A DNA stretch of 64,000 nt from an uncultured virus (IMG/VR IMGVR_UViG_3300011114_000961). Taxonomy: Duplodnaviria > Heunggongvirae > Uroviricota > Caudoviricetes. This document shows, piece by piece, positions 4,293 through 53,273 of this stretch; positions within the stretch are counted from its first letter, which is position 1, and every line of letters starts with the position of its first letter. Location: positions 1 through 64,000 of IMG/VR virus record IMGVR_UViG_3300011114_000961. One strand, given 5' to 3'. Position numbers and translations under genes: made by a program. The notes under the pieces are model-generated. The model had not been told where the DNA came from and ran no database searches. It worked only from the letters and a program-made list of their open reading frames with translations.

Positions 4293-4321
4293 TTGCAACT
4301 GTCACAAGATTGTTATACAAT
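4293..4321 (+). promoter_or_regulatory. sigma70-type promoter
   Basis: TTGCAA-N17-TACAAT. Confidence 0.6.
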
Positions 4322-4369
4322 AGTCAAATGCTGTACGCAACAGCTATTCACTAATGAAAGGTAAATTAT

Positions 4370-4636
4370 ATGCGTTTTAATCCAGAAACAAAAACATTCA
4401 AGGTATTCAGTGCTTTGTACAACGGCGAGAAGTTGACCCCTGCTGCTGCTGAAAAGCGTTTTGGTGTGAAGAATCTTTCCGCCGAAGCCAGCCGCATCCG
4501 TGCTGCTGGTTATGCTGTGTATGCCAACAGCCGTGTGGCTGGCAACAACACCAAAGTCACCGAGTATGTGATTGGCAAACCTAGCCGCAAGATTGTGGCA
4601 GCTGGCTACAAGGCCATGGCCCTTGGTTTGGTCTAA
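4370..4636 (+). CDS. winged-helix DNA-binding-like protein
   Basis: GEKLTPAAAEKRFGVKNLSAEASRIRAAGY; strongly biased codons; own promoter and terminator. Confidence 0.65.
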   Translation: MRFNPETKTFKVFSALYNGEKLTPAAAEKRFGVKNLSAEASRIRAAGYAVYANSRVAGNNTKVTEYVIGKPSRKIVAAGYKAMALGLV

Positions 4637-4658
4637 TCCGTTCGGATAACCAACATGC

Positions 4659-4686
4659 AAAAACCCTGCCTGGTGCAGGGTTTTTT
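4659..4686 (+). terminator. intrinsic terminator
   Basis: AAAAACCCTGC-CTGGT-GCAGGGTTTTTT. Confidence 0.85.
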
Positions 4687-4687
4687 G

Positions 4688-4716
4688 TTGACCAGTAAAT
4701 CACAATCTGCTATAAT
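4688..4716 (+). promoter_or_regulatory. sigma70-type early promoter
   Basis: TTGACC-N17-TATAAT. Confidence 0.85.
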
Positions 4717-6775: not shown

Positions 6776-7012
6776 ATGTTTGCACGTATGGTTGAAGACT
6801 TGATGAAAGAACCGCAGTCAGAAATTGTAACGATACAACTAAAGGACTATGAAAATTGGCAAAAACAATACACCTGGGACGCATTGCAAAACATACGTTA
6901 CGGGCAGAGTTTCTGTAATCAATACAACATTACAGATTTGAGACTGTACTACTCTCGAGACTGGGTGTTCTGTGATCGATTGATACGCAAAGAATACATC
7001 ACCCGACCCTGA
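6776..7012 (+). CDS. hypothetical protein
   Basis: ORF in operon; start uncertain. Confidence 0.65.
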   Translation: MFARMVEDLMKEPQSEIVTIQLKDYENWQKQYTWDALQNIRYGQSFCNQYNITDLRLYYSRDWVFCDRLIRKEYITRP

Positions 7013-7209
7013 TGCATTCAATCACTTTCAACATGAGTCCACAGCAGGGTCTAGAGCTCAAGACTCAACTGGAGCAGTCGGGACTGATTCAGGGATATGA
7101 TTTCACATGGACATACGTGCCGCCCGATGACATTAACCGTCATCGAACTGTGATATTTCATTTTCGAGATCCTGCACTAGCAACGTTTTATCAATTGAAA
7201 TGGAGTTGA
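7012..7209 (+). CDS. stand-alone member of the F-x-L-[RK]-W small-protein family
   Basis: ends FHFRDPALATFYQLKWS like the 16654-18859 array genes. Confidence 0.7.
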   Translation: MHSITFNMSPQQGLELKTQLEQSGLIQGYDFTWTYVPPDDINRHRTVIFHFRDPALATFYQLKWS

Positions 7210-13482: not shown

Positions 13483-13734
13483 ATGATAATAAACTTCATT
13501 GCACCAGGTAAAGAGATCAAACAATATACTTGGCATGAGGCTTTGTCGGCTGCTGGTGCCACACAAACTGATCATCCAATGATACAAGACCAATTGTTGG
13601 AAGATTGGATTGGCGACCGCCGCAGTCGTGTTATCGAATTTAATGTACACAGCTACAGTGCCGAACTGGAACGGGCTGCTGCTGATAACATAGCCATCGT
13701 CATAATCAAGGAGAACCCAAATGACCAATCATGA
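13483..13734 (+). CDS. hypothetical protein
   Basis: ATG 6 nt after the -10 box. Confidence 0.55.
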   Translation: MIINFIAPGKEIKQYTWHEALSAAGATQTDHPMIQDQLLEDWIGDRRSRVIEFNVHSYSAELERAAADNIAIVIIKENPNDQS

Positions 13735-13909
13735 ACAAATCGTCGCTGCTTACGAATCTTACATTGCCGAAAACGAAAAATTCACAGGCAAAGGTGTCAA
13801 GGCTGCTGCTGCCAGAGCAAGAAAAGCCCTGCAAGAAATGAGCAAAGGCATCAAAGAACGCCGCAAAGAAATCACCGCAGAAAAAGAAGCCCTAGCTGTC
13901 AAGGTGTAA
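13721..13909 (+). CDS. histone H1-like Hc1 family protein
   Basis: ENEKFTGKGVKAAAARARKALQEMSKGIKERRKEI; AAGGAG SD. Confidence 0.8.
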   Translation: MTNHEQIVAAYESYIAENEKFTGKGVKAAAARARKALQEMSKGIKERRKEITAEKEALAVKV

Positions 13910-15334: not shown

Positions 15335-15907
15335 ATGAAAGCAAATCAAATATCCCTTTTGGCACAACGCTACAGTTCATATCTACTCAAAGTCCTAGGA
15401 CTGATTGCAGTGGTCTATGTGGTGTACGTGGTGACCAATAATCGACTCAATGCCCTGCGTGAACAACCAGATGGTCTATCCGCAACTTATATCAGTGCAG
15501 CACAACGCACCCGAGAACTGGAATGCCTCACAAGAAACATCTATTGGGAAGCTGCCAACGAACCGTTTGAAGGCAAGGTGGGTGTGGCGCAGGTCACTCT
15601 GAACCGTGTGGACTCTGGACGTTTTGCCAATTCTGTATGTGCAGTGGTATATCAGAAAAACGTATTCTACGAAAAAGTAGTGTGCCAATTCAGCTGGTTC
15701 TGTGAATCAGGACATCCTGGCAAAGCCATACACCGACCCCTGTGGAGGGAAAGTGAGGAAGTGGCCAAAAAAGTGTTGTTGGAAGGATTCCGCTTGCCGG
15801 GACTGAAAAACGCACTGTACTATCACGCTGACTACGTGAATCCGGGTTGGAACAAACCCAAATTAGAGAAAATTGGACATCATATCTTTTACGGAGAAAA
15901 AACATGA
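15335..15907 (+). CDS. cell wall hydrolase, SleB/Hydrolase_2 family, membrane-anchored
   Basis: CLTRNIYWEA, VAQVTLNRV, CQFSW, YYHADYVNPGW, IGHHIFY. Confidence 0.9.
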   Translation: MKANQISLLAQRYSSYLLKVLGLIAVVYVVYVVTNNRLNALREQPDGLSATYISAAQRTRELECLTRNIYWEAANEPFEGKVGVAQVTLNRVDSGRFANSVCAVVYQKNVFYEKVVCQFSWFCESGHPGKAIHRPLWRESEEVAKKVLLEGFRLPGLKNALYYHADYVNPGWNKPKLEKIGHHIFYGEKT

Positions 15908-16206
15908 TATTTGCATCTCGTTCTATTATTGACTGGTTGGGTGAACACTTGCCCAGATTGAGTGCAGAAACTTTAGGATGGTTATCAGCCATAGTGTTAC
16001 ATGCTGCTACTGTGCCCACTTTGCTGGCTCTGATGACAGGACTCAGTGATCGAACACCTAGTTTGGACGTGATATTGTTCTTGTGGGCTGGACTGGTCTT
16101 GTTGTTCATGCGAGCGGTGGTGCTCAAAGACATGTTGAATATCATCACTGTGGGCTCGGGATTTATTGTGCAAGCCGTTTTGATGGCGCTGATCCTGTTC
16201 AAATAA
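15904..16206 (+). CDS. three-TM membrane protein
   Basis: hydrophobic segments; GGAG SD; ATGA overlap. Confidence 0.75.
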   Translation: MIFASRSIIDWLGEHLPRLSAETLGWLSAIVLHAATVPTLLALMTGLSDRTPSLDVILFLWAGLVLLFMRAVVLKDMLNIITVGSGFIVQAVLMALILFK

Positions 16207-16209
16207 CGG

Positions 16210-16238
16210 TTGACCGGTAATTTGAGCTGTGCTATAAT
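16210..16238 (+). promoter_or_regulatory. sigma70-type early promoter heading the array operon
   Basis: TTGACC-N17-TATAAT. Confidence 0.85.
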
Positions 16239-16264
16239 AAGCACATGACTACCAGGAGATCTTT

Positions 16265-16657
16265 ATGACCATGCACATGTGCGGCCCTGCGCTGAGCCTC
16301 AATGGCAAGAAGAAGGGTAAATTCAAATACCGTAATGCTGCTGAAGCTCGCAAGGCTCGTGAACTCGAAGCTGACTGGAAACAACTGCTGAAACGTCAAG
16401 GTGTGGCTGCAGAAGAAAAGAAGCGTCGTCGTGCTCTAGCAGCAGAACCCTTGGTTTACAATTTGACTGGTGCCACAGATCGTGCAGGTACTGCTCACAT
16501 TCCCAGTCTTGGCACCGGCGGTGGTGTGGCAGCGTTGGCACCTGCCAAAGTGTATACAGGCACCAAGGTCAAAGGCATTGCTACCATGCACAAGAGCAAT
16601 GCTGTGCCTGTGTTCAGCGACGAAGAAGCAATTGACATATCCAAGATGCGGCGATGA
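16265..16657 (+). CDS. basic conserved phage hypothetical protein
   Basis: AGGAG SD; YTGTKVKGIATMHKSNAVPVF...ISKMRR. Confidence 0.8.
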   Translation: MTMHMCGPALSLNGKKKGKFKYRNAAEARKARELEADWKQLLKRQGVAAEEKKRRRALAAEPLVYNLTGATDRAGTAHIPSLGTGGGVAALAPAKVYTGTKVKGIATMHKSNAVPVFSDEEAIDISKMRR

Positions 16658-16950
16658 GTAACGCTATATTGACTCCACAACAGATAACCAAAATGGCAAC
16701 ACAATGGATAGATGAAATCAACGTGAAACGCCTTGAAACTGGCTATGCTGAAAATCAACCTAAATGGCCCTATTGGATTCGACCATCAAACTACACTGAG
16801 GCAGAGTGGTGGGGCATGGACCAGTGGGTAATAGATACAATGGGAGAGTCTGATTGGTCAGTAGAACACGCTCGTTGGGTTGGCAGTAATTACAAGTATT
16901 GGTTCCGTGATGAACGGGACCGCACTTTGTTTTTGTTGAAGTGGTCATGA
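16654..16950 (+). CDS. array gene 1 (F-x-L-[RK]-W family)
   Basis: ends YWFRDERDRTLFLLKWS; ATGA overlaps at both ends. Confidence 0.8.
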   Translation: MSNAILTPQQITKMATQWIDEINVKRLETGYAENQPKWPYWIRPSNYTEAEWWGMDQWVIDTMGESDWSVEHARWVGSNYKYWFRDERDRTLFLLKWS

Positions 16951-17177
16951 CTTTGCCCAAGATTATACATCGTCCCGAGTTAGATAGATGGGATGTGCAT
17001 TTTAGCCTTACTACTCCGGGCAGTAATATAAAACAAGTGCATGAATGGTGCTGGGATACTTTTGGACCCAATGGATTTATTACACATACGCATGACCGTC
17101 ATTGGGATTATCTCGGTGGCTGGTTATACTTGTATAAAGAAAAGTATGTTACATTGTTTTTGTTGAGGTGGTCATGA
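16947..17177 (+). CDS. array gene 2
   Basis: EWCWDTFG...VTLFLLRWS. Confidence 0.8.
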   Translation: MTLPKIIHRPELDRWDVHFSLTTPGSNIKQVHEWCWDTFGPNGFITHTHDRHWDYLGGWLYLYKEKYVTLFLLRWS

Positions 17178-17368
17178 CCCTGATTGTTGACTACGGTATC
17201 AAACGAGTCAAGATGCCCTACAAAATTGTCCAAGGCAATAAGTGGCTTGAGGCAGATCGCTGGTGTACTAAGACTTTTAAATTTGGTGAACACCAAAGAG
17301 CCAACGGCTATTTTTACTTTAAAAAGCAAAAGCACCTGATGTTGTTCTTGCTGAAGTGGGGCGCATGA
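17174..17368 (+). CDS. array gene 3
   Basis: RWCTKTF...FYFKKQKHLMLFLLKWGA. Confidence 0.8.
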   Translation: MTLIVDYGIKRVKMPYKIVQGNKWLEADRWCTKTFKFGEHQRANGYFYFKKQKHLMLFLLKWGA

Positions 17369-17607
17369 ATAGCAAACAGCGTAGAAAAGAAAAACGTGAT
17401 ATTGACAAGAATTATCACAAGGTACATCTTACAGTACGCCCGGGAATGGATTGGACTGATTGGTGTGATCAAGTTGCGGAAATGGTTAGGTGGGTTAGTG
17501 AACATACTAGGCGTGATTGTTGTTTGCAAAAAAATGAGTGGGCCGGTAGTACATTCTATTTCTCGGACGCAAAAGATGCCACACATTTTACATTGAGATG
17601 GTCATGA
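17365..17607 (+). CDS. array gene 4
   Basis: RWVSEH...FYFSDAKDATHFTLRWS. Confidence 0.8.
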   Translation: MNSKQRRKEKRDIDKNYHKVHLTVRPGMDWTDWCDQVAEMVRWVSEHTRRDCCLQKNEWAGSTFYFSDAKDATHFTLRWS

Positions 17608-17804
17608 CAAAAGTAGAGAAAACATCATATCCAGGTTGGAACAATCATCCAGTTTACCGTTGTATGAAAACAGAAGATTGGCACGAAATTACTAGTTGGA
17701 TGTATAAAAATGATTGCAATCCTTTTCTATTGAGTTCAGGCAGCACAGGCTATGTGTTTCAAGTTAGAAAGAACCACGATTGGTTTCTGTTGAGGTGGTC
17801 ATGA
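17604..17804 (+). CDS. array gene 5
   Basis: SWMYKN...DWFLLRWS. Confidence 0.8.
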   Translation: MTKVEKTSYPGWNNHPVYRCMKTEDWHEITSWMYKNDCNPFLLSSGSTGYVFQVRKNHDWFLLRWS

Positions 17805-18016
17805 AATACCCGCAGCCAGAATGGCATATAGTCAGTGTGCCGGTACCCAATGATCCCAAAATCGCTTCAAATTATAAAGGATGGAGTCCCTGTATAGATT
17901 GGTGCTTTGAACAATTCGGTGGCCAGTCTGAGGATGGGTGGAGGTATCTTGGCGAAGGTGTGGTCGAGTTCCGCGATGAAAAACATGCTGCATGGTTCTT
18001 GTTGAGGTGGCTATGA
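17801..18016 (+). CDS. array gene 6
   Basis: DWCFEQFG...EFRDEKHAAWFLLRWL. Confidence 0.8.
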   Translation: MKYPQPEWHIVSVPVPNDPKIASNYKGWSPCIDWCFEQFGGQSEDGWRYLGEGVVEFRDEKHAAWFLLRWL

Positions 18017-18264
18017 TGGATATAGAACACAAATATCTTAATAAACTAACTAAAGATTTAGCTGATAGTATTGATACCGAAATACTATACAATGCTATGG
18101 GTTGGACTATTGTTAAAATACCAGATCCATGGTACATTCCTAGTGTGTCTAGTAATGTGAAAGATTGGTTAAAAGAAACTAAAATTGAATGTCATTGTTG
18201 GGACAGCAAGATTGCTTTCAAAGAAGGTAGTGATGCTACATTCTTTTTATTGAGGTGGACATGA
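18013..18264 (+). CDS. array gene 7
   Basis: DWLKET...AFKEGSDATFFLLRWT. Confidence 0.8.
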   Translation: MMDIEHKYLNKLTKDLADSIDTEILYNAMGWTIVKIPDPWYIPSVSSNVKDWLKETKIECHCWDSKIAFKEGSDATFFLLRWT

Positions 18265-18506
18265 GAGTAGAATTTCGTCAAGGTGTGCCCGAAGGGTGTA
18301 CCGAATGGTTAAACAAACATGTGGGCAAAGGCAATATGACTGGCCTTGTTGACAATTACGATTATGCCTGGTTCTACAAGCGTGAGCGTGTTTATCCACA
18401 GCCACACGAAGCGTTTGACCCTCGTGACTTGGGACCAAAATATGTGCCCACTATCACAGTTAAAGATCCTAAGTTGGCAACATGGTTTATATTGAGGTGG
18501 ACATGA
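18261..18506 (+). CDS. array gene 8
   Basis: EWLNKHVG...KDPKLATWFILRWT. Confidence 0.8.
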   Translation: MRVEFRQGVPEGCTEWLNKHVGKGNMTGLVDNYDYAWFYKRERVYPQPHEAFDPRDLGPKYVPTITVKDPKLATWFILRWT

Positions 18507-18859
18507 GCAAGAGTGAGATTAAAGGTCTTTTCTTCTTTAGACAAAACTATTGGATGCCCTGCGGATTGAATATCAAAGAACATCTCTGGTGGCGATTTAT
18601 GCCCGGAGTTGTAATCAATGTAGCATGGCCCAGGGGGTGGGTAGATATAGATTGGATGCCAGACGGTAGTAAAACATCTGTCGATAGCAGTGACCCAAAC
18701 GATCACTATCGCCCATGGTTAGAAGAACATGTCGGTCGTCAAAAATGGGATTGGGATTGGGGCATGGCTGATCGTGATGCTACTGACAATCGTCTAACCA
18801 TAAAGATTAGTCAAAAGTATGCCAAGTATGCTACAATAGCAGCATTGAGATGGACATGA
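18503..18859 (+). CDS. array gene 9
   Basis: PWLEEHVG...ATIAALRWT. Confidence 0.8.
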   Translation: MSKSEIKGLFFFRQNYWMPCGLNIKEHLWWRFMPGVVINVAWPRGWVDIDWMPDGSKTSVDSSDPNDHYRPWLEEHVGRQKWDWDWGMADRDATDNRLTIKISQKYAKYATIAALRWT

Positions 18860-18894
18860 TTAAAAAACGTTTATTAACTTTTAGAGGAGAACTT

Positions 18895-19305
18895 ATGGAT
18901 TTGATGGATTGGGAAAAAGCAGAAGTGTTTCGCTTGCTGAAAAATGCACCTGGAACGCAGTATCAAGAAGCTGACACCGCAGGCCAAGCGGAAATAAGGG
19001 CTTGGGTCAAGGGCCTGTTGACCACCAGCGAAGTCACTGTGCAGTTTGTGAAATCAGATGGCACCACACGTGACATGCGATGCACTCTGGACAGCAGCAG
19101 AATTCCGCCAGCACCTGTAGGCACAATTTTCAAATCCTCTACTGCTAACCCAGATGGACTAGACACACTGGCCGAAAATAAAAAACCGCGCAAAGAACCT
19201 GATCCTGTGACCCAGCGAGTTTACGATTTAGATCAGGCTGCCTGGCGCAGTTTCCGCTATGATCGATTGAAGAAGATCACAACAGAGATCAACTTCACTA
19301 AGTAA
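18895..19305 (+). CDS. WYL_2 / Sm-like SH3 beta-barrel protein (in-frame coupled start also at 18856)
   Basis: VTVQFVKSDGTTRDMRCTL...VYDLDQAAWRSFRYDRL; GAGGAG SD. Confidence 0.8.
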   Translation: MDLMDWEKAEVFRLLKNAPGTQYQEADTAGQAEIRAWVKGLLTTSEVTVQFVKSDGTTRDMRCTLDSSRIPPAPVGTIFKSSTANPDGLDTLAENKKPRKEPDPVTQRVYDLDQAAWRSFRYDRLKKITTEINFTK

Positions 19306-19311
19306 TTGCAT

Positions 19312-19530
19312 ATGGCCAAAGAAGAAACTCTCAAAATGGAGGGAACAGTTGAAGACATTTTACCTGCTGCGATGTTCCGCGTCAAAATAGACAATGTTGA
19401 GCATACAGTGCTGGGACATCTCAGTGGGCGAATGCGTACCAACAATATCAAAGTGCTGCTGGGAGATCGGGTAGAAGTGGAATTCACACCATACGATCTC
19501 ACTAGAGGGCGTATTGTTAGAAGAAAATAA
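19312..19530 (+). CDS. infA: translation initiation factor IF-1
   Basis: MAKEE..EGTV..LP.AMFRV...[32 protein letters not shown]. Confidence 0.97.
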
Positions 19531-19538
19531 ATACCTGT

Positions 19539-20081
19539 ATGCGTGAACACATAGACTTACTGGAAGCCAGCACCAGACCGGCCAAACTAGAAACTACTCC
19601 ACTACCTTATGGTCCCAAGGACCTGGCACCGGTGATGAGTGCTGCCACAATTGATTACCATTTTGAACATCTCGCCAAGGGCTATGCCAAGCGATACAAT
19701 GCAGGAGAAGGCAATGCAGATTTTAATCGTGCTGGCAGTTTTTTACACAATAAGTTTTTCCCTCAGCTTAGGGCTCCCAAAGGTGCCAATCGACCACGTG
19801 GTGCAGTACTCGCACTCATAGAAGAACATTTTAAAACCTACGAAGATTTCAAAATAGCATTCAAAGAAACTGCTATGAAAATACAAGGCTCTGGATGGGT
19901 GTATCTCAGCACCAGCGGAGCAATCAAGACCATCGCCAATCATGCCGTACGCACCGACATCTGTGTGCTAGTAGACTGGTGGGAACATGCCTGGGCCCTG
20001 GATTATCAAAGCGACAAAGAAGCATATCTCAACAATATCTGGAAGATCATTGATTGGGATGTGTGCAACGAAAGACTATAA
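19539..20081 (+). CDS. Fe/Mn superoxide dismutase
   Basis: LPY..DLAPVMS..TIDYH, LHNKFF, QGSGW, DWWEHAW. Confidence 0.9.
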
Positions 20082-20401
20082 TGAATCTCAAACCTGCTGC
20101 TGTGAGCAAACTGCGTGAGCTGATCGCAGAAGAAGCCAACCCTGCGCTCATGCTGCGTGTGTTTGTGCAAGGCGGCGGTTGTTCAGGATTCAGTTATGGA
20201 TTCACGTTTGATGAAATTCAAAACGAAGATGATTTTGATTTCAACTACGAAGAAGTGCGAGTGGTAGTAGATGCCATGAGCATGCAATATCTACAAGAAT
20301 CAGACATTGATTACAAAGAAGATGCCATGGGTGCCAGCTTTGTGATAAAAAATCCCAATGCAGTCAGCACCTGCGGCTGCGGCAGTAGTTTTTCAGTTTA
20401 G
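20081..20401 (+). CDS. erpA: A-type iron-sulfur cluster insertion protein
   Basis: [20 protein letters not shown]...[14 protein letters not shown]. Confidence 0.92.
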
Positions 20402-21864
20402 TCGCCGCCACCACCGCCAAAGCCGCCACCAGCGACGCCGCTGCTGCCTTCTCCCCTGCCTGGTCCACCACCTCCACTTGGTTGCGGTGGTGGAGAGTAA
20501 ACGTATGGACTGGACCGCGGAACCATACCCCAATCTCCGCTGATAGTTTCAAAATTAGTAGTTTGTTGGCCGGACACCTGGGTCCAGGCCCCATTTTGTT
20601 TGATATAAATTGCATTTGTGATTTTCCAAGTGCCTTGATCATTCACATAAACTTCCTTGGTAGCATAATAGGTACCAGCTTGATTTACAAACACCCCAGG
20701 AACATTCATGTATATCACTGCATATCCATTGCCCCCACGTTCGCCGTTTGATCGCCCACCTTGTCCAACTCCAGCTGGTACTGAGATTCCTGACTGTCCG
20801 CCGGGTGTTCGACCACTGGGATTAAATCCATTTGGATAGGCAAAACTCCAGCTGGCGCCAGGGTTTCCTGCTTGTCCACCAGTATCGCTAGCACCCGGCC
20901 ACCCGCCATATGCTCCACCATTGCCACCTCCGCCAGTGCTGCCATTGTATCCTCCGCCACCACCTCCGCCAGCGCCGCCGTCACCTGGATGACCTGCTCC
21001 TGATTCACCATTGAACCCTGTGGTAGTTTGGCCGTTGGGCCCAGGACTGCTGCCACCTGGGCTAGGATTACCTGCCCCGCCGCCGCCACCGCCGCCGGCA
21101 GCCACGCCCTGCAATAGCCCATTTTGTAATAAAACAGTTGCCCCGCCGCCACCACCACCACTACCGCTAGCACCTCGTGATCCTGAATTGCCGCCCGGAG
21201 CACCTGAAAAACTAGCCCCACTGTTGATCGATACAGCCACTCCAGCGGGTCCTCCACCGGAGTTATAACCTACAATACGTAAAGTATGAGAACCGCTGGT
21301 TATTGTAATATTGTTAATTCTTGAACCGTTATAACTTCCGCTGGAAGATGCCACAGCAATCCCATCTATGTATACTGTGCCATCGTCATCAAATGCTGTC
21401 TGCAAAACAAATACACCAGTGAATGGCACAGAAATAGTGGTAGAGACATCAAGCGTGTAAGCACCATTGGCATTCCATACAGCATAGGCGTTCATGAAAT
21501 TGCTCCAGGCGTAAGGTAAACTCACTGCAATCAATCCATTTGTTCCAGCCAATTGTCTTGTGTTGAATACGCTATACCCAACATAGCTAGATCCTCCTGA
21601 TCCTCCACTTACTCCGCCGCCGCTGAGCCCGCCACCACCGCCGCTGCCCACTGCCAGTGTAATAACATCAGCAGTGTTGCAAGCAATTGTGGCAATCGAA
21701 AACCCGCCACCACCTCCTGCGCCTCCGGGGCCAGAATCGTTCCCGCCGCCACCACCACCACCGCCCCAGAGATGTGCAGTAAGTTGAGCGTCAGGAATCA
21801 ACGGATATACCGTGAGTGTTTGTAATGAATTTGTATACCCTACCGGTCTAGATATTATTGGCAT
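20398..21864 (-). CDS. glycine-rich virion/fibre protein with central beta-sandwich domain
   Basis: WGGGGG...GGNGYAVI Gly-rich domain; [14 protein letters not shown]14-like insert. Confidence 0.7.
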
Positions 21865-21876
21865 TATAGATTTGTA

Positions 21877-24459
21877 TTATACTTGATACCAGATATCACC
21901 ATCGCTGCCGCCTGTGGGTATTGCACTACTAATAGTTCGATTACCGTACCCATTAGAACTGCTTGCTATGGTCAACGTTACGTTGGTACTCAACGCACCT
22001 CCGCCACTGAGTCCAGTACCGGCAATAACCCGAGTAGTAATTCCCACAGCATTGAGATTTACCAAAGCATTGGCATAATCACCAGAACCAGTACCCCCGG
22101 CTGTTACAGCCAATGGAGTAATACCTGTGATGGTTCCGCCAGTGATCACTATATTGGATGTTATTAAATTAGCTTGCACCGTCGAATTGGTCATATTGAT
22201 GTTGGTCATTGACCCGCCACTGATTGATACTGCGCTAGAATCTTGCGTGGCTATGCTGCCCATGCCCAAATTTAATCTGGCCACAGATGCGATATTGGAG
22301 CCAGTTCCTCCAGACAACACCGGCAATGGAGTTATCCCACTGATGATGCCGCCGGTGATGGCAACTGCATTGGCATTTTGTGTGGCAATAGTGCCCAGTC
22401 CGAGATTTGTTCGAGCACTGGCTGCATTGCTGGCTCCGGTTCCTCCAGACAACACTGGCAATGCAGTTATCCCGCTGATACTGCCACCAGTGATGGCAAC
22501 TGCGCTGGCATTTTGTGTGGCAATAGTGCCCAGGCCAAGATTTGTTCGAGCACCAGCTGCATCACTGGCTCCAGTTCCTCCATCGGCCACAGCCAGGTCT
22601 GAGATGTTGTAGATTGACCCACCTGAAATATTTACAGCAGTAGAATTTTGTGTAGAGATGGTGCCCAGGCCCAATCCTGTGCGACCCCCGGCTTGCGACG
22701 ACCCGCCAGTGCCGCCATATTCAACTGATAATGGTGTGATACCAGTTATGGTACCACCAGTGATGGCAACTGCATTGGCATTCTGCTGGCTCATTGTGGG
22801 CAGGGCATTGGTCCAGTTAGTAACAAATCTTGTGGTAGCTATCTGCGTATTACTGACAGTGATGTCAGGTGTGGGTGCCGCTGGTGTTCCAGTAAATACT
22901 GGACTGACCTTTTGTGCCTGCACAAACTCAGTGGTGGCTATTTGTGTACTGCTATCATTAGATGCAGCAGTAGGCGACTGTGGTGTTCCAGTAAATACCG
23001 GACTGACCTTTTGTGCCTGCACAAACTCAGTGGTGGCCATTTTATTATCAGCGGCTGTGTACCCAGGTGTTGGACCTGTGGGCGATACAGCAAAAGCTGG
23101 GCCATTGGTCACAAATGCTGTGGTAGCCAATTGAGTGGTTGCTGTTCCTGCTGCTGCTGTGGGCGCAGTGGGTATGCCAGCAAAAGCTGGACTATTGGTC
23201 ACAAATGCTGTGGTAGCCAATTGAGTGGTTGCTGTTCCTGCTGCTGCTGTGGGCGCAGTGGCAGAAATTATGCCACCGGTGATAGAAACATCACCAGCAC
23301 TCTGTGTGGCGATGCTGCCCAGTCCGAGATTTGTTCGAGCACCAGCTGCATCACTGGCTCCAGTTCCTCCATCAACTACGGCCAGATCTGAAATATTGTA
23401 AATTACTCCGCCCGAAATAGCCACATTATTGGCGTCTTGTGTAGAGATAGTGCCCAGGCCCAACCCTGCAAAAGCAGCGCCTTGAGTTGATCCACCGGTG
23501 CCGCCGTATTCAACTGCTAATGGTGTGATACCAGTTATGGTGCCACCGGTGATGGCAACTGCACTGGCATTTTGCTGGCTCATGGTGGGCATGGCGTTGG
23601 TCCAGTTGGTAACAAACTGTGTGGTAGCTATCTGCGTATTACTGACAGTGATATCAGGTGTGGGTGCTGCCGGTACTCCAGTGAATACTGGACTGATCTT
23701 TTGTGCCTGTACAAATGCTGTGGTGGCCAATTGAGTGGTACTGGTAGACGATGTGGCAGTGGGTGCTGCCGGTACTCCAGTGAATACTGGACTGATCTTT
23801 TGTGCCTGTACAAATGCTGTGGTGGCCATTCGATCATCATCTGTCAAACTGGTCAATGTTGGGCCTGTGGGCGATACAGCAAAAGCTGGGCCATTGGTCA
23901 CAAATGCTGTGGTAGCAATTTGTGTAGAATTGGTTCCTGATGCTGCTGTGGGCGCTGTGGGCGTGCCAGCAAACATGGGACTGTTGGTCACAAATGCCGT
24001 GGTAGCCAATTGAGTGGTCGCTGTTCCTGTGCCAGCAGTGGGTGCAGTGGGCGTGCCGGCAAAAGCTGGACTGTTGGTCACAAATGCCGTGGTAGCCAAT
24101 TGAGTGGTTGCTGTTCCTGTGCCAGCAGTGGGTGCAGTGGGCGTGCCTGTGAATACAGGGCTGATTTTTTGTGCTTCTACATACGCAATGCTGGCAAGAT
24201 CAACAAACACATTGGCACTGTTATAAACTGATAGTATATCTTCAGAATTGTTGTACCATAGCTGACCAGTTATAGGCTGAGTAGGCGGAACGATATTGCA
24301 GAAATTTTCCAGCAAATACACATAATTTTCGTTTTCATAAACACCATATTCTATAACAGCCCGCCCTACCAAGGCAAGATCTGTAGCGGTGGTGTTTACT
24401 GTTCCGTCGGGTATGAATGCTATTTGGTCGCCACGGCTGTTATTGATGATATAACTCAT
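21877..24459 (-). CDS. tail fibre protein
   Basis: N-terminal ENENYVYLLENF..P.TGQLWY anchor; repeated PTAPT..TQLATTAFV and GGTGAS.A..ARTNLGLG units. Confidence 0.85.
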   Translation of the reverse strand: MSYIINNSRGDQIAFIPDGTVNTTATDLALVGRAVIEYGVYENENYVYLLENFCNIVPPTQPITGQLWYNNSEDILSVYNSANVFVDLASIAYVEAQKISPVFTGTPTAPTAGTGTATTQLATTAFVTNSPAFAGTPTAPTAGTGTATTQLATTAFVTNSPMFAGTPTAPTAASGTNSTQIATTAFVTNGPAFAVSPTGPTLTSLTDDDRMATTAFVQAQKISPVFTGVPAAPTATSSTSTTQLATTAFVQAQKISPVFTGVPAAPTPDITVSNTQIATTQFVTNWTNAMPTMSQQNASAVAITGGTITGITPLAVEYGGTGGSTQGAAFAGLGLGTISTQDANNVAISGGVIYNISDLAVVDGGTGASDAAGARTNLGLGSIATQSAGDVSITGGIISATAPTAAAGTATTQLATTAFVTNSPAFAGIPTAPTAAAGTATTQLATTAFVTNGPAFAVSPTGPTPGYTAADNKMATTEFVQAQKVSPVFTGTPQSPTAASNDSSTQIATTEFVQAQKVSPVFTGTPAAPTPDITVSNTQIATTRFVTNWTNALPTMSQQNANAVAITGGTITGITPLSVEYGGTGGSSQAGGRTGLGLGTISTQNSTAVNISGGSIYNISDLAVADGGTGASDAAGARTNLGLGTIATQNASAVAITGGSISGITALPVLSGGTGASNAASARTNLGLGTIATQNANAVAITGGIISGITPLPVLSGGTGSNIASVARLNLGMGSIATQDSSAVSISGGSMTNINMTNSTVQANLITSNIVITGGTITGITPLAVTAGGTGSGDYANALVNLNAVGITTRVIAGTGLSGGGALSTNVTLTIASSSNGYGNRTISSAIPTGGSDGDIWYQV

Positions 24460-34371: not shown

Positions 34372-34584
34372 ATGTCAAAAGATATATACAAAAGCGCCAA
34401 TGGCAAAGCAGTAGACATGGGTGCATTGCGTCAACGAAATGAAAAGGTTCGTGCTGTGGGCAATATGAAAGTGAATGCTCGCGGAGATCTGGTCAATGAT
34501 GACAATGAAATAATTCAAGCACGAAATCAACAAATCAACAATCAATACAACAAGCAAGTTCAAAACACCAGAGGACATCAATGA
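34372..34584 (+). CDS. hypothetical protein
   Basis: TAAATA plus AGGAGG SD. Confidence 0.75.
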   Translation: MSKDIYKSANGKAVDMGALRQRNEKVRAVGNMKVNARGDLVNDDNEIIQARNQQINNQYNKQVQNTRGHQ

Positions 34585-34982
34585 TCAAAGCAGCATACGC
34601 ACCACATGAAATAAAACGCAGTCAACTTCGCCCATTGGGAGAATCTGTGATTGTGAGCGAAATGGTATTTGATGTGCGTCTCAGTACTGGTGGTATTATT
34701 ATTCCCAGCGACAATGGCAAAAGCACCGGAATTCGTCCGCGGTGGGGTCGAGTGTATGCTGTGGGCCCTGAACAAAAAGACGTTGTTGAAGGTCAATGGG
34801 TGTGCGTAGAGCACGGCCGCTGGACCCGAGGCATTGACATAGAAGATGAATCGGGCAAGGTCACTTTGCGAAGAGTGGATCCCAAAGACATCATGATGGT
34901 GTCTGACGAGGCGCCAGCCGACGACACATTCTCTACTGCTATACATGTAGAGGCCAAACCCACATACATGCAACACAACTGA
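34581..34982 (+). CDS. GroES-like co-chaperonin
   Basis: LRPLGESVIV...STGGIIIP...GRVYAVGP...V.EG..V. Confidence 0.8.
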   Translation: MIKAAYAPHEIKRSQLRPLGESVIVSEMVFDVRLSTGGIIIPSDNGKSTGIRPRWGRVYAVGPEQKDVVEGQWVCVEHGRWTRGIDIEDESGKVTLRRVDPKDIMMVSDEAPADDTFSTAIHVEAKPTYMQHN

Positions 34983-50153: not shown

Positions 50154-50939
50154 ATGAGTGATTATTATGACACCCTGGGTGTACCGCGCACAGCATCTGC
50201 TGATGACATAAAAAAGGCCTATCGTCGGTTGGCCAGTCAGCATCATCCTGACAAAGGTGGTGACACTGCCAAATTCCAACAAATCCAAGCTGCTTACGAA
50301 ACACTCAGCGACGATCAAAAGCGAGCAGCCTACAACAATCCGCAGCAACACACACAGCATTTTGGTGGTGGATTTCCGGGCAATCCGTTTGATCTCAACA
50401 ACATATTCAGCCAAATGTTTGGCCAGCAGATGCATGCCCAACAACAGCAACAGCGCCGTCAGGTCACCATGAACTTGTGGATATCGCTAGCCGATGCCAT
50501 ACGCGGTGGTGCAAAAACTGTGAGCGTGAGCACTGCTGTGGGCACTACCACTGTGCAGATTGACATTCCTCGATCCATTCAAGACGGCGACAATGTGCAA
50601 TACGGTGGCATAGCACCTGGCGGTATGGATCTGATTGTGCAGTTTAGAATCAATCCTGATCCAGTTTGGCATAGAGATGGATTCAACCTGCATTGCGAAC
50701 GCAAAGTGGACATTTGGAAACTGATCCTGGGCTCAGATGTTGAAATACACACACCCACTGGCAGTACACTGAGCATGACTGTGCCACCGCGCACACAACC
50801 AGGTTCGATCATGCGATTGAAAGGTCAGGGCTTGGTCAGCAAAGATGGACCGCCTGGCGACATTTTGGTACGCATGCAGGCTCGAATTCCTGATGCCATT
50901 CCCGATGCATTGTTAGATGCCATCCAACAACACCAATAA
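50154..50939 (+). CDS. DnaJ-class (CbpA-like) chaperone
   Basis: J domain with HPD, G/F region, C-terminal domain, no zinc finger; promoter TTGCTC-N17-TATAAT 50117-50145. Confidence 0.92.
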
Positions 50940-51011: not shown

Positions 51012-53273
51012 ATGGCACACGAAATCGAAAGCATTGTTGACAACGCTGTAAAAATAGCTAAAGAAAAAAGTCACGAATATGTGATGACCGAACACTTGTT
51101 ATTGGCCATGCTGCGCCAAGGACACTTCCGTAGACTGGTTGAACAGTTTGGCGTGGAAATAGACATGCTGGATCAAGAGCTGGATGCATACTTGAACAGT
51201 CTGATGAACCTGGTCAAGACAGGTGATGTACAGCCCAAAAAAACACAAAGCCTGGAACGTGTGTTCAATCGAGCCAACGTGCAGGTCATGTTCACTGGCC
51301 GCAGAGCCATGAACCTGTTGGATGTGTATCTCAGCATCATGGCCGAAACCAACAGCCATGCACACTACTTTTTGCTCAAGTACGGGATGAAGAAGTCTGA
51401 GTTTGTGGAATTCTATCAGAAAAATCACACACAGGTAGACAGCAAAATGACATCCAATCAAGCAGACGAAGTACTGACCGAATACTGTACCAGTCTCACT
51501 GCACAGGCCGCTGCCAATCAATTGGAACCGCTGATTGGTCGTGCAACTGAACTGGAAGAAATGATTGCTGTGCTGGCACGTCGTTTCAAAGCCAACGTGC
51601 TCATGGTAGGCGATCCTGGTGTGGGCAAGACCTGCATTGTGGAAGGACTAGCACAGGAAATCAATGCAGGGCGTGTGCCCGAGTTTCTCAAAGGCTACGA
51701 AGTATGGAGTTTGGAAATTGGTAGTTTGCTGGCCGGAAGCAAATACCGCGGCGAGTTTGAAGAAAAACTCAAGGTGGTACTGGCAGCCTTGGAAGCCAAA
51801 AAGAACTGCATCTTGTTTGTGGACGAAGCACACACCATGAAAGGTGCAGGTGCAGGCAGTTCGGGAAGCAGTCTAGACTTTGCCAACATGCTGAAACCAG
51901 CCATCACACGTGGCACACTCAAGGTTGTGGCCAGTACCACCTGGGAAGAATTTTACGAGAGCTTCGAAAAGGATCGTGCTCTCATGCGCCGTTTCTACAG
52001 GTTGTCGATTGACGAACCGGACACTGCGACCACTGAAAAGATCCTGATCGGGCTCTCACCCAGACTGGAAGCATTCCACAATGTCATGATCGACACAGCG
52101 GCAATGACCACTGCTGTGGAACTGGGCAATCGATACATTCACGATCGAAAGAATCCTGACAAGTGTATTGATCTGTTGGATGCAGCCTGTGCCCGAGAAC
52201 GTGTTCGAGATGCAGGCACCGCGACCATCACTAAAGAATTGATTGAAGCACAAGTGGCCCGTGTGACAGGTGTGCCCACAGATCGATTGCAGAATGAGCG
52301 ATCAGCCAAGATTGTGGATCTTGAAAGCAATATCAAACAACATCTCTACGGGCAAGACGCTGCGGTGGATGCTGTGTTGGATCGTGTGTACATCAACTTC
52401 TCAGGTATTGGCAACGAACGACGGCCCATGGCCAGTTTCTTGTTTACGGGGCCCACTGGCACAGGCAAAACTGAATTGGCCAGACTGTTGAGCCAGCACC
52501 TGGACATGCCATTGTTGAAATACGACATGAGTGAGTATCAAGAACGTCACAGTGTGTCAGGCTTGATTGGTGCACCTCCAGGCTATGTGGGATTTGAGGA
52601 CGGCAACATAGGCGGCGGCAAGTTGATCGCCGACATCAGCAAGAATCCCTTTTCTGTGATCTTGTTTGACGAAATTGAAAAGGCACATCCAGATGTCAGC
52701 AACATCTTGCTGCAGATGCTGGACGAAGGTGTGTTGACCAGCAGCAATGGCAAAAAGGCCAATGTGAAGAACTGCATCATTATCATGACTTCAAATCTGG
52801 GTTCCAGGGACAGCGAAAGCAATGCCATCGGCTTTGGCTCACAAGAAAAGACCGGAGAAGAAGACCGTGCCATGAAAGAGTTCTTCAAGCCCGAAATGCG
52901 TAATCGTATTGATCAAGTGTGTAAGTTTGTGAAACTGGATACTTTGGCCATTAAAAAGATTGTGCTTAAATTTGTGGATGAGCTCAAGACCAGTTTGGAA
53001 AGCAAACGCATACGCTTGGTGTTGACAGAGCCCGTGATTGATTACCTGGCTGAAAAAGGCTATGATAACAAAATGGGTGCAAGACCCCTAAGCCGCAAGA
53101 TTGATCAGTTGATCCGTGTGCCATTGAGCAAGCGGATCCTGTTTGATCGACTGACCGATTGTGATATCACTGCAACACTAGTGGATGATCAAGTGCATTT
53201 TGAAACTCAAGCACATGTGATTCCTGTGGTAGATGTAGATGGCATCATTAGATTCCCAGCAGCAGGCACTTGA
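51012..53273 (+). CDS. clpA: ATP-dependent Clp protease ATP-binding subunit
   Basis: two AAA+ modules (GDPGVGKT, GPTGTGKT), no M-domain, IGF loop; promoter TTGCGT-N17-TATAAT 50954-50982. Confidence 0.93.
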   Translation: MAHEIESIVDNAVKIAKEKSHEYVMTEHLLLAMLRQGHFRRLVEQFGVEIDMLDQELDAYLNSLMNLVKTGDVQPKKTQSLERVFNRANVQVMFTGRRAMNLLDVYLSIMAETNSHAHYFLLKYGMKKSEFVEFYQKNHTQVDSKMTSNQADEVLTEYCTSLTAQAAANQLEPLIGRATELEEMIAVLARRFKANVLMVGDPGVGKTCIVEGLAQEINAGRVPEFLKGYEVWSLEIGSLLAGSKYRGEFEEKLKVVLAALEAKKNCILFVDEAHTMKGAGAGSSGSSLDFANMLKPAITRGTLKVVASTTWEEFYESFEKDRALMRRFYRLSIDEPDTATTEKILIGLSPRLEAFHNVMIDTAAMTTAVELGNRYIHDRKNPDKCIDLLDAACARERVRDAGTATITKELIEAQVARVTGVPTDRLQNERSAKIVDLESNIKQHLYGQDAAVDAVLDRVYINFSGIGNERRPMASFLFTGPTGTGKTELARLLSQHLDMPLLKYDMSEYQERHSVSGLIGAPPGYVGFEDGNIGGGKLIADISKNPFSVILFDEIEKAHPDVSNILLQMLDEGVLTSSNGKKANVKNCIIIMTSNLGSRDSESNAIGFGSQEKTGEEDRAMKEFFKPEMRNRIDQVCKFVKLDTLAIKKIVLKFVDELKTSLESKRIRLVLTEPVIDYLAEKGYDNKMGARPLSRKIDQLIRVPLSKRILFDRLTDCDITATLVDDQVHFETQAHVIPVVDVDGIIRFPAAGT

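Follow-up and report, generated by a model that had tools for sequence, protein, structure and literature searches.

Nine paralogous small genes linked by a recurrent coding joint in a partial genome of an uncultured giant phage from freshwater

Variable sets of small genes, and the short sequences that link them, are known from several systems. Gene 'accordions' in poxviruses were reportedly described by Elde in 2012, and the ip loci of T-even phages are said to have been worked on by Repoila and colleagues in 1994. As set out in the passages cited here, the ip loci encode diverse injected proteins that have only a short N-terminal capsid-targeting leader in common, and their known members are specific anti-restriction factors (PMC12373910, PMC3012670). 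In T4-type phages, modular shuffling in hyperplastic regions has been ascribed to PeSL (promoter-early stem-loop) cassettes (Arbiol et al., 2010, PMC2839356; Comeau et al., 2014, PMC4122927), and T4 itself has been reported to recombine at microhomologies of 6-10 bp (Srikant et al., 2022, PMC9391042). Intragenic Shine-Dalgarno (SD) motifs at ATGA/TGATG overlaps are presented as a well-described general phenomenon (Huber et al., 2019, PMC6728339). This qualifies the initial annotation of the locus considered here, which recognised no described system with such a design; a description of arrays of this kind was nonetheless not found in literature searches, which is no proof of absence.

The locus lies in a fragment of an uncultured freshwater giant (jumbo) phage, for which the full record comprises 125,970 bases (~126 kb) with an estimated completeness of 36%. 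The window, meaning the whole stretch of DNA that was analysed, covers 64 kb and holds nine small genes, here termed cassettes, which lie back to back and co-directed on the + strand between 16654 and 18859 and encode products of 64-118 aa (Table 1). All coordinates in the initial annotation of these nine reading frames were reproduced, including the overlap of each stop codon with the next start. TGA is the stop codon in 9/9 cassettes, overlapping the following ATG each time, and the boundary between the upstream anchor gene and cassette 1 is built likewise; a 4-nt ATGA stop/start overlap is therefore present at 10/10 consecutive boundaries from 16654 to 18859. The anchor gene has 270 relatives in viral contigs. 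When positions 16200-19400 were compared with cultured phages by blastn, the sole match was a 106-nt stretch of Delftia phage PhiW-14 similar to the anchor gene, and the genes downstream of this stretch are annotated as hypothetical. An Rfam search of 15500-20500 returned no match.

A sigma-70-like promoter had been proposed to head the operon, and this placement was upheld: the predicted site is the best promoter match between 14000 and 21000, as judged by consensus match only, with nothing comparable inside the array, where the same scan gave only 9-of-12 matches and no promoter hexamers at the joints. Promoter-like sites in the region number 16, compared with 11.1 (sd 3.3) in shuffles, which is no clear excess. 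By consensus scan only, the cassettes appear to be promoterless behind this one strong consensus promoter.

Table 1. Features of the cassette locus, in window coordinates; product lengths of cassettes are counted from the overlap ATG.
Feature	Position	Strand	Product	Details
Sigma-70-like promoter	16210..16238	+		TTGACC-17-TATAAT, extended TG, 11/12 matches; predicted; heads the operon
Anchor gene	16265..16657	+	130 aa	Conserved upstream flank; phrog_27048 (E 2.5e-27); TGA overlaps cassette 1 ATG
Cassette 1	16654..16950	+	98 aa	Ends FLLKWS; type A, the commonest type
Cassette 2	16947..17177	+	76 aa	Ends FLLRWS; without close relative in the fetched loci
Cassette 3	17174..17368	+	64 aa	Ends LLKWGA, one additional codon before the stop; 93% identical in L009
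Cassette 4	17365..17607	+	80 aa	Ends FTLRWS; 78% identical in L009
Cassette 5	17604..17804	+	66 aa	Ends FLLRWS; without close relative in the fetched loci
Cassette 6	17801..18016	+	71 aa	Ends FLLRWL; 56% identical in L010
Cassette 7	18013..18264	+	83 aa	Ends FLLRWT
Cassette 8	18261..18506	+	81 aa	Ends FILRWT
Cassette 9	18503..18859	+	118 aa	Ends AALRWT; type H; most divergent, same core fold; 59% identical in L011
WYL_2 gene	18856..19305	+	149 aa	Conserved downstream flank; PF10902 (E 9.6e-10); ATG overlaps cassette 9 TGA
Joint 1>2	16936..16950	+		TTGAAGTGGTCATGA; breakpoint vs L009, L010, L011
Joint 2>3	17163..17177	+		TTGAGGTGGTCATGA, exact consensus; breakpoint vs L009; contig loose ends at 17177/17178
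Joint 3>4	17351..17368	+		CTGAAGTGGGGCGCATGA, variant with additional codon; contigs join other cassettes to 17364/17365
Joint 4>5	17593..17607	+		TTGAGATGGTCATGA; breakpoint vs L009
Joint 5>6	17790..17804	+		TTGAGGTGGTCATGA, exact consensus
Joint 6>7	18002..18016	+		TTGAGGTGGCTATGA; block end vs L010
Joint 7>8	18250..18264	+		TTGAGGTGGACATGA
Joint 8>9	18492..18506	+		TTGAGGTGGACATGA; loose contig end at 18504
Joint 9>WYL_2	18845..18859	+		TTGAGATGGACATGA; breakpoint vs L009 and L010

The nine cassettes are true paralogues with a common alpha/beta core. A profile of the nine, run on the 126-kb record, found exactly these nine (E 2e-24 to 9e-12), and 9/9 gene ends encode L-[RK]-W-x(x)-TGA. The N-termini, initially regarded as almost unalignable, are indeed variable, but the proteins can be aligned over about 55-65 residues, beyond the last six. 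The mid-protein Trp that had been noted is invariant across this alignment; the residue preceding it in cassette 1 is Q, outside the [EDRSP] set that had been given for this position. AlphaFold models of cassette 1 (pLDDT 90.5) and cassette 9 (pLDDT 74.3) have the same helix-strand-strand-helix-strand-strand-helix order, consistent with a shared fold, for which structure prediction had been suggested. The C-terminal helix had been suggested to be a constant docking helix; in both models it is the last helix of the common core, ending in ...F-x-L-[RK]-W-x in this family, and a structural element fits better. The family is very large and unnamed, with 5,285 cluster representatives (50% identity clusters) at E<=0.001, the last Trp lying <=5 residues from the end in 129/149 top representatives. 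Up to 17 members occur within one 6-kb locus of relatives, and the distant representatives P0124 and P0128 gave no loci in viral contigs.

Comparisons with described proteins returned little. In Pfam, 0/9 cassettes reach the cut-off, and in PHROGs v4 no cassette match lies above threshold, the only one being cassette 5 with phrog_13121 (E 0.014). When 112 family members were searched against the curated families of Pfam-A and PHROGs v4, no family matched more than 5 of them, and Foldseek gave 0 matches at E<=0.001 against the PDB. The best VIA-align match among 48,161 chains was a BMC shell protein (Z 5.9), followed by DCoH/pterin dehydratase and ACT domains (Z 5.3-5.5), all below the level that the tool calls meaningful. 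Matches in BFVD are confined to uncharacterised proteins of uncultured phages, and those in the protein atlas to unnamed viral clusters. A diversified binder family for host takeover or counter-defence is a guess, held with low confidence. In its pattern of diversification the family resembles hotspots known for counter-defence, and it is therefore a reasonable candidate for functional screening.

At the DNA level, the gene ends form a recurrent joint. The 15-mer TTGAGGTGGTCATGA, allowing <=3 mismatches, has 8 copies in the 64-kb window, all 8 being array joints, whereas shuffled sequences had a mean of 2.78 (sd 1.57, maximum 7) and reached 8 in 0/100 cases; the one remaining joint, 3>4 (CTGAAGTGGGGCGCATGA), is one codon longer. 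The repeat extends to ~32 nt, with 63-100% identity to a reference copy. A recount of the joint codons gave the numbers first reported, with TTG for Leu in 8/9 (CTG in cassette 3) and AGG in 5, AGA in 2 and AAG in 2 for the basic residue (n=9). Inverted repeats were absent from 9/9 joints, the 4 pairs within 16600-18900 all lying away from them, and the 60 nt around each joint fold no more stably than shuffled sequence (z -0.80 to +1.21, with 7/9 at or above 0). Two candidate explanations were rejected: a frameshift-fused polyprotein, the joints not being slippery, and RNA structure at the joints, folding being no stronger than in shuffles. The GGTGG within the joint presumably bears a resemblance to the E. 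coli Chi site, with 5/8 bases in common.

Each cassette was initially proposed to carry the translation signal of the gene that follows, and this was supported. The strong SD-like motif GAGGTG stands 3-5 nt before the next ATG at only 5/9 joints, and in the closest relatives the 192 coupled joints comprise only 42 with AGG, alongside 59 with Lys and 26 with CGN. Because this motif is limited to 5/9 joints here and to a minority in the closest relatives, the ATGA overlap, rather than the SD motif, is the constant part; in relatives, 187/300 adjacent family pairs have the 4-nt overlap. Pairing energies were calculated with an assumed anti-SD 9-mer. The predicted SD pairing of starts 2-10 has a mean of -6.6 kcal/mol, compared with -3.4 for 72 other + strand genes and -2.2 for random 20-mers, and values <=-6 kcal/mol are reached by 6/9 array starts, the corresponding shares for other genes and for random 20-mers being 24% and 5.5%.

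Joint codons also depart strongly from the usage of the phage. In the window, AGG accounts for 4.5% and AGA for 17.6% of Arg codons, and one or the other encodes 7/7 Arg residues at the joints. Among 218 distinct joints of relatives, AGR and CGN occur 107 and 26 times when coupled and 5 and 6 times when uncoupled (Fisher p 0.016), a value which is optimistic, as are all p-values here, given that all joint codon counts contain related sequences. In a second set, Arg is encoded by AGG at 119/165 coupled and 20/41 uncoupled joints, against a background of 8.3%; uncoupled members of this set have AGR in 33/41 Arg, and the AGR-vs-CGN contrast is not significant (p 0.11). In type A orthologues, synonymous constraint is confined to the last four codons, with upstream F and T codons varying freely, as seen over few conserved columns. 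Such a constraint would be easier to reconcile with a translation signal than with an extended site of recombination, and the joint looks dual-use, serving both as C-terminal codons and as start signal of the next gene.

The same codons bear on a rather unlikely alternative, an ordinary paralogue expansion in which the motif would be conserved at the protein level only, ATGA overlaps would be generic packing, the SD-likeness would be a by-product of Leu-Arg-Trp codons, and selection would keep whole-gene changes produced by random illegitimate recombination. This alternative has difficulty with the share of AGG among Arg codons, which is 32-72% at coupled joints vs 4.5-8.3% in the background, and with that of TTG among Leu codons, 64-67% at coupled joints, compared with 44% at uncoupled ones and a background of 20-36%. 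It also leaves aside that CGN and AGT occur mainly where the next gene is not close. Downstream of cassette type D, for instance, there is usually a gap of 196 nt, and this type has CGC in 16/17 cases, and a solitary family member at 7012-7209 ends in TTG AAA TGG AGT TGA with no overlap with the next gene. Further arguments against it come from the 21-nt pattern TTTNTNTTGAGGTGGTCATGA, which viral contigs contain as exact copies in no fewer than 140 stretches, a single 6-kb locus having as many as 8 among the copies listed, and from the seamless swaps, which left no gene remnants in the cases inspected. A plain expansion is consistent, on the other hand, with the retention of the protein motif without coupling (...CLRWS with CGT or CGC; FLLRWE with CGC), with the helix belonging to the predicted fold, and with ATGA overlaps at 8/15 of the overlapping or abutting gene pairs listed in the window outside the array. 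It is also consistent with the alternation of K and R within orthologue groups, which alone favours AGR codons, AAR to AGR being one mutational step. Since uncoupled members prefer AGR too, part of the AGR bias may come from K/R toggling, recent descent or homogenisation.

The joint had been predicted to offer microhomology for insertion, loss and reordering, and the locus between the anchor and WYL_2 genes to vary among relatives in number and order with breaks at the joints; the comparison of the locus among relatives came out as predicted, with breakpoints located inside the joint. Between the same two flanking genes, 11 loci hold 0 cassettes and others hold 1, 3, 6, 6, 6/6 or 7, compared with 9 here. 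The order is ...F-V-H in this array, J-H-F in L122 and O-H-F-V in L123, and for type A the coupled successors number 17, all different, and the predecessors 13. The L009 locus aligns with the window in the blocks 15811-16951, 17155-17612 and 18844-22780, and differs from it by two indels, one comprising cassette 2 and the other cassettes 5-9; from the limits of the blocks, both end within 22-24 nt shared at joints. Its cassettes are 69-93% identical to those of the window despite an anchor protein that is 98% identical. Indels between close relatives likewise end in the short conserved joint recurring through the variable region, and in 485 of 747 same-type cassette pairs with differing downstream DNA, which are not independent, similarity is lost at a position between 0 and +4 relative to the stop codon. 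Homology at the breakpoint is true by construction, since the motif is common to all joints. Breakpoints at gene boundaries are also expected from selection after random illegitimate recombination.

Mapping of metagenomic reads had been suggested as a way to see junction-to-junction deletions or circles. Other seamless joins were present in contigs of other metagenomes, namely cassette 1-4 (two runs), cassette 1-WYL_2 and cassette 6-4; circles are hardly visible in contigs. It is barely credible that the array or these variant joins are assembler chimeras formed at repeated sequence. In favour of such chimeras, every joint is a copy of a repeat, and variant joins are carried by single contigs whose depth is low in some runs (2.3 to 13.6). 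The repeat, however, measures at most ~32 nt and is imperfect, all frames remain open, and the same architecture recurs in 70 + 77 independently assembled loci. In addition, three runs contain 98-99% of the sampled words of the stretch, although single runs leave parts of it without contig cover, and positions 16977-17420, which include two joints, are matched without difference by a contig from another study. Of the runs found to contain this DNA, 0 are recorded as RNA.

Taken together, these data point with good probability to a promoterless, translationally chained paralogue array that is reshuffled by ordinary short-homology recombination at its coding joint. Transcription would probably start at the promoter at 16210-16238, with the flanking genes included, and expression may be early. 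Ribosomes would move from gene to gene through termination-reinitiation at the ATGA overlaps, with the final codons, typically TTG AGG TGG TCA, spelling the SD-like GAGGTG ahead of the next ATG. The near-identical 15-30 nt at every family gene end would provide short homology between any two joints, where general recombination or replication slippage could delete, duplicate, insert or reorder whole genes. Each joint-to-joint event would restore a working stop, SD and start, and the slot would stay a fast-changing set of related small proteins. Shuffling at such short homologies is plausible because T4 recombines at 6-10 bp microhomologies, as reported in the cited account (PMC9391042). If this reading holds, one short coding stretch would act as protein structure, translation signal and recombination site, and gene gain, loss or swap would give a working operon without a dedicated enzyme, resulting in a very economical evolvable gene set.

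A further reading, which we consider unlikely, is a recombinase-free selected cassette system, where the joint would be C-terminal helix, ribosome-binding site, next start and portable recombination site in one. Cassettes may leave the array on this view, perhaps in circular form, and insert again at any other joint, within a genome or between co-infecting phages, and many freshwater giant phages may draw on a shared, continually reshuffled effector gene pool. The wide occurrence of TTTNTNTTGAGGTGGTCATGA in viral contigs and the mosaic divergence of L009 are compatible with such exchange.

Very improbable is a dedicated integron-like system, in which cassettes would be excised and inserted as circles by a site-specific recombinase or nuclease that recognises the joint and whose gene would lie either in the host or in the two thirds of the phage genome outside the record. 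Promoterless cassettes behind one promoter, a common joint and highly variable gene content and order are what such a system would display, and with a record that is 36% complete a recombinase could be missed. Against this, the 125,970-base record (36% complete) has no match to PF00589 (tyrosine recombinase), with control genomes all matched, or to PF00239, so that neither tyrosine nor serine recombinases were found in 126 kb. Neither inverted repeats nor stable hairpins are present at the joints, codons plus SD and start account for the joint sequence, and cassette 1 lacks a joint at its 5' end. The contigs revealed no circular form, though they could hardly do so. On these sequence grounds, with no integrase found in the 126-kb record and no hairpin sites at the joints, the array is very probably not an integron, and the likeness drawn in the initial annotation is an analogy only. 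Integron arrays do resemble it in their co-directed, promoterless cassettes that follow a single promoter, in a joint that recurs, and in a content and order that vary; they differ in their integrase and attC-type hairpins, neither of which was found here, while this array comprises one family only and appears to be chained at the level of translation.

The remaining systems can be compared along similar lines. Like the array, the ip loci are described in the cited passages as a hotspot of small, fast-diverging proteins with one short constant terminal segment; this segment is an N-terminal leader on proteins otherwise without homology (PMC12373910, PMC3012670), whereas in the array the whole fold is shared, the C-terminal helix is constant, and no packaging signal is evident in the nine cassettes of the window. 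The amplifications and deletions reported for T4 resemble the array in that the copy number of small counter-defence genes shifts fast at short repeats. Events in T4 and poxviruses involve accidental microhomologies and identical copies (PMC9391042), whereas here the homology is built into the gene ends and the copies are old and highly diverged. The coupling outlined by Huber et al. (2019) has the same 4-nt overlap with an SD-like motif in the last codons of the upstream gene, and the contribution of its SD is not the same in all gene pairs (PMC6728339), in keeping with the mixture of AGG, AGA, AAG and AAA found here. In that account coupling is a property of single gene pairs (PMC6728339), whereas in the array it would reside in the C-terminal codons of one family, in a joint that is repeated nine times and travels with the gene. 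The PeSL, as portrayed in the cited sources, is likewise a short conserved sequence between small non-essential genes of a variable region, marks the indel ends of close relatives, brings expression signals for the gene it flanks and is proposed to act by homologous recombination between copies, possibly via mini-circles (PMC2839356, PMC4122927). It differs in being intergenic, with ~100 bp comprising a promoter and a stem-loop terminator, and in flanking unrelated ORFans (PMC2839356, PMC4122927), whereas the array joint is coding, ~15-30 nt long, with translation signals and no stem-loop, and its genes are paralogues. Should the reading of a translationally chained, reshuffled array hold, the PeSL idea of modular shuffling would extend from intergenic transcription signals to translation signals inside genes.

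The nine cassettes (see table) are joined to one another in a uniform manner. Each encodes a C-terminus of Leu, a basic residue (Arg or Lys), Trp and one further residue (two in cassette 3), followed by a TGA stop codon, and at all nine ends this stop overlaps the next start as ATGA. The upstream flank gene is joined to cassette 1, and cassette 9 to the downstream flank gene, in the same way. Similarity among the joints spans about 32 nt, and a search of the 64-kb window for the 15-mer TTGAGGTGGTCATGA, tolerating 3 mismatches at most, gave 8 sites, every one at an array joint, compared with a mean of 2.78 in shuffled sequence, where 0 of 100 shuffles reached 8. A promoter had been proposed at 16210-16238 and was borne out by a consensus scan as a sigma-70-type element (TTGACC, 17 nt, TATAAT and TG; 11/12 matches); the scan revealed none of that quality inside the array. 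Joints whose last residue is Ser (TCA) carry the palindrome TCATGA (16945-16950, 17172-17177, 17602-17607 and 17799-17804), replaced by ACATGA at the three distal joints. The last codon tends to match between neighbouring cassettes, as it does in the related loci L010 and L013, and this sharing may reflect local duplication or conversion.

Coordinates of the array, its flanking genes and selected genes of the window
Feature	Position	Strand	Remarks
Cassettes 1-9	16654-18859	+	consecutive; 98, 76, 64, 80, 66, 71, 83, 81, 118 codons
Upstream flank gene (anchor)	16265-16657	+	phrog_27048, no assigned function
Downstream flank gene	18856-19305	+	WYL_2 domain
ClpP, Cpn10-like, DnaJ, ClpA/B-type AAA+ ATPase, IF-1, Fe/Mn superoxide dismutase, IscA/HesB, Hc1 genes	106-696, 34581-34979, 50154-50936, 51012-53270, 19312-20398, 13721-13906		listed jointly

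The initial annotation described the nine proteins as almost unalignable at their N-termini. These are indeed variable, but the proteins align over about 55-65 residues, with the central Trp and the C-terminal Leu and Trp invariant, and a profile built from them recovers just the same nine proteins when run against the whole record (E 2e-24 to 9e-12). The AlphaFold2 model of cassette 1 (pLDDT 90.5) comprises a helix (8-23), strands (26-31, 40-45), a helix (49-63), strands (75-78, 81-84) and a helix (87-97). The same order of elements is predicted for cassette 9, the most divergent member (pLDDT 74.3). The nine proteins are one family with one predicted fold. Since the two models agree, the conserved C-terminal segment would be the last helix of the core and not a loose tail, which suits a structural element better than the free docking helix first suggested. 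None of the nine reached Pfam or PHROG thresholds, and no single curated family matched more than 5 of 112 family members. Foldseek returned no PDB match at E<=0.001, while exhaustive structural alignment gave a best Z of 5.9 (microcompartment shell protein, DCoH-type and ACT domains), a score that the tool rates as uninformative; matches in BFVD were exclusively uncharacterised proteins from uncultured phages. Judged by sequence searches, the family is very large: a word-indexed search yielded 753 proteins at E<=0.01, and a full profile search over 1.84 billion cluster representatives yielded 5,285 at E<=0.001, only 6 of them at E<=1e-10. Of the top 149 representatives, 129 have their last Trp no more than 5 residues from the end and 91 have exactly one residue after it; this Trp is preceded by R in 98 and by K in 29. 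Two further ATGA-coupled small genes in the same phage (L276 271-594 and 591-884, i.e. G000:C1:123870-124193 and 124190-124483) end in ...LAWFQLSHVRDV and ...LSWFQLKYL; the first matches the family profile weakly (E 3.4e-5), and the pair may belong to a more distant branch. On L071, a contig of a related 354-kb phage, residues 10-37 of the family member at 4319-4714 score above the Pfam cut-off against positions 5-32 of the Gp23 major capsid profile (E 2.6e-6), which may hint at a capsid-protein-like N-terminal leader on some members.

As the initial annotation had anticipated, both the number and the order of genes between the two flank genes vary among relatives. In the best 80 of 270 confirmed loci found with the upstream flank protein, a walk from the flank gene reached a WYL_2-like gene in 23; the slot was empty in 11 of these, with the flank genes themselves ATGA-coupled in 9 of the 11. 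The slot holds one cassette in L016, three in L009, six in L010, L011 and L013 + L014, seven in L028 and nine in the window, and in a few loci it holds other genes. A further 47 loci were obtained with cassette 1 as the query (127 in total), and an iterated profile identified 370 plus-strand members in 70 of the 127, forming 68 clusters, with an ATGA overlap in 187 of 300 adjacent family pairs. Cassette order is not fixed: by cluster letter the window reads A-?-J-G-?-M-F-V-H, while related loci read A-A-J-H-F (L122), A-O-H-F-V (L123), A-?-O-J-..-M-G (L119) and F-J-A (L124). One sub-lineage follows a partly colinear backbone, B-C-...-A-G-F-D-E, its arrays differing in which individual cassettes they carry. 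Type A is coupled directly to any of 17 different successors, and 13 predecessors were counted for it. At least 140 viral-contig stretches contain an exact match to the pattern TTTNTNTTGAGGTGGTCATGA, at up to 8 positions per 6-kb locus among the matches listed, and profile members (1-17 per locus) were found in 77 of the 80 such loci fetched; besides the pattern hits, 354 distinct members show 201 ATGA and 41 one-nt overlaps. In the most distant relatives (L071, L074 and L083 (1-5440); anchor 62-63% identical), the 12-14 family members precede the anchor rather than follow it, in arrays with more TAA stops and gaps, so that the family occupies different slots in different lineages.

Comparison of close relatives places the breakpoints at the joints, where they had been predicted. 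L009, whose flank protein is 98% identical to that of the window, aligns in blocks 15811-16951, 17155-17612 and 18844-22780, and adjacent blocks overlap on L009 by 24 and 22 nt. These overlaps are the joints, indicating that cassette 2 and cassettes 5-9 are absent with both breakpoints inside joint sequence. The blocks obtained with L010 and L011 also break off at 16950, 17177 and 18016, and begin at 18842. In 747 same-type cassette pairs (at least 75% identical upstream and unlike downstream), which are not independent of one another, the ungapped match runs out at 0 to +4 nt relative to the final stop-codon base in 485 pairs, and between -25 and +10 in 82%. In assembled contigs from four metagenome runs, cassette 1 is followed immediately by cassette 4 (two riverine runs) or by the WYL_2 gene (one contig, with only 21 letters on the shorter side), and a cassette-6-like gene precedes cassette 4, the reverse of the window order (one contig, depth 2.3); across each of these joins the sequence reads ...L-R-W-x and then ATGA. 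A contig from another study matches 16977-17420 without difference, which reproduces the window's own order. Two points call for caution here: breakpoints at gene boundaries are also expected from selection acting after random events, and in type A synonymous constraint is confined to the last four codons.

The joint has also been considered as a translation signal. GAGGTG lies 3 bases before the ATG (GAGG 5 bases before), and presumably pairs with the 16S 3' end. With an assumed 9-nt anti-Shine-Dalgarno (SD) sequence, predicted pairing averages -6.6 kcal/mol at chain starts 2-10, compared with -3.4 for 72 other plus-strand genes of the window and -2.2 for random 20-mers; values of -6 or below occur at 6/9 joints, 24% of the other plus-strand genes and 5.5% of random 20-mers. 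Such a motif is mostly missing from the window's other overlapping or abutting gene pairs. Codon choice is a stronger argument than pairing. The codons initially counted at the joints proved exact, with AGG (5) or AGA (2) for all seven Arg, TTG for 8/9 Leu and AAG for both Lys, against a background in 56 window genes of 4.5% AGG and 17.6% AGA of Arg, 35.6% TTG of Leu and 32% AAG of Lys. Among relatives, a first set of 68 distinct members had AGR for 28/28 Arg at coupled joints and 2 AGR to 3 CGN at uncoupled ones (p 0.0018). In an enlarged set of 218 distinct joints the contrast is weaker yet holds (107 AGR and 26 CGN coupled, 5 and 6 uncoupled; p 0.016), with TTG for 126/188 Leu at coupled joints. 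A third set of 265 joints, drawn from loci that contain an exact copy of the junction pattern but excluding the joints that match it, gave AGG for 119/165 Arg at coupled and 20/41 at uncoupled joints (background 8.3%); AGG against AGA (p 0.022) and TTG against other Leu codons (p 0.008) differed, and AGR against CGN did not reach significance (p 0.11). All these p-values are optimistic because the sequences are related. Two internal controls agree with the codon bias: type D, usually followed by a 196-nt gap, has CGC for Arg in 16/17, and the solitary member at 7012-7209 (+; ...FHFRDPALATFYQLKWS) ends TTG AAA TGG AGT TGA without an ATGA overlap, the next ATG lying two bases past its stop (gene from 7212). 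The Trp-Ser codons of this member spell GGAG 6 nt before that ATG. Lys and Arg alternate within orthologue groups, which unaided favours AGR over CGN, and uncoupled members are likewise codon-biased. Among the closest relatives AGG occurs at 42/192 coupled joints, so a strong SD is present at part of the joints only. The proposal that each cassette carries the signal for the next gene accordingly stands for the ATGA overlap and not for a strong SD at every joint. From these sequence comparisons we conclude that the overlap is probably the constant coupling device, and that the SD would be an adaptive but dispensable reinforcement in the family's last codons. Intragenic SD motifs at ATGA overlaps have been well documented, with a contribution that differs from pair to pair (PMC6728339).

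The simplest account of the rearrangements would be joint-to-joint exchange by general homologous or microhomology recombination, or by template switching. Amplifications and deletions at microhomologies of 6-10 bp have been reported in T4 (PMC9391042), against which a joint of 15-30 nt is ample. Cassette 1 lacks a joint at its 5' end, and type A leads the array in the window and in its three closest relatives, all later positions being variable; that the sole conserved position lacks a 5' joint fits such exchange. A dedicated site-specific system, in the manner of the integron to which the array was first likened, is unlikely, since no tyrosine recombinase, serine recombinase or RecA-type gene was found in the 126-kb record, itself 36% complete, no inverted repeats or hairpins were found at the joints, and joint sequences fold no more stably than their shuffles.

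The IMG/VR record, of which the window forms the first 64 kb, comprises 125,970 bases with a CheckV completeness of 36%, implying a phage of roughly 350 kb, and the runs containing the stretch are labelled as viral, riverine, lake and freshwater metagenomes. The window encodes ClpP, a ClpA/B-type ATPase, DnaJ, a Cpn10-like protein and IF-1, together with Fe/Mn superoxide dismutase, an IscA/HesB protein, NAD synthase and a histone-like Hc1 protein; the phage's proteostasis and translation gene set is unusually rich. Two large glycine-rich genes (488 and 860 aa; 20401-24459, minus strand) lie in a region where GC rises to about 0.51, with internal repeats evident as multiple self-like blastn blocks at about 22214-23574 in the L009 alignment. 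Among cultured phages, DNA similarity to the region was limited to Delftia phage PhiW-14, whose gene 114 matches the C-terminal portion of the anchor gene; small hypothetical genes lie downstream of it there (L089, genes 114-118). By analogy, the array resembles counter-defence hotspots in its strong host-type promoter, the small size of its genes, their rapid diversification around an unchanging scaffold and their location in a variable slot. One example is provided by the T-even internal-protein loci, whose members have been described as sharing a short terminal segment only and as inhibiting specific restriction systems (PMC12373910, PMC3012670). A literature search found no description of such an array design, which combines two known elements: overlap coupling with an intragenic SD, and the shuffling of modules at conserved boundary elements, as described for the PeSL system (PMC2839356, PMC4122927). 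In the array, by contrast, the boundary element is coding, is a feature of the protein family and bears signals for translation instead of transcription.
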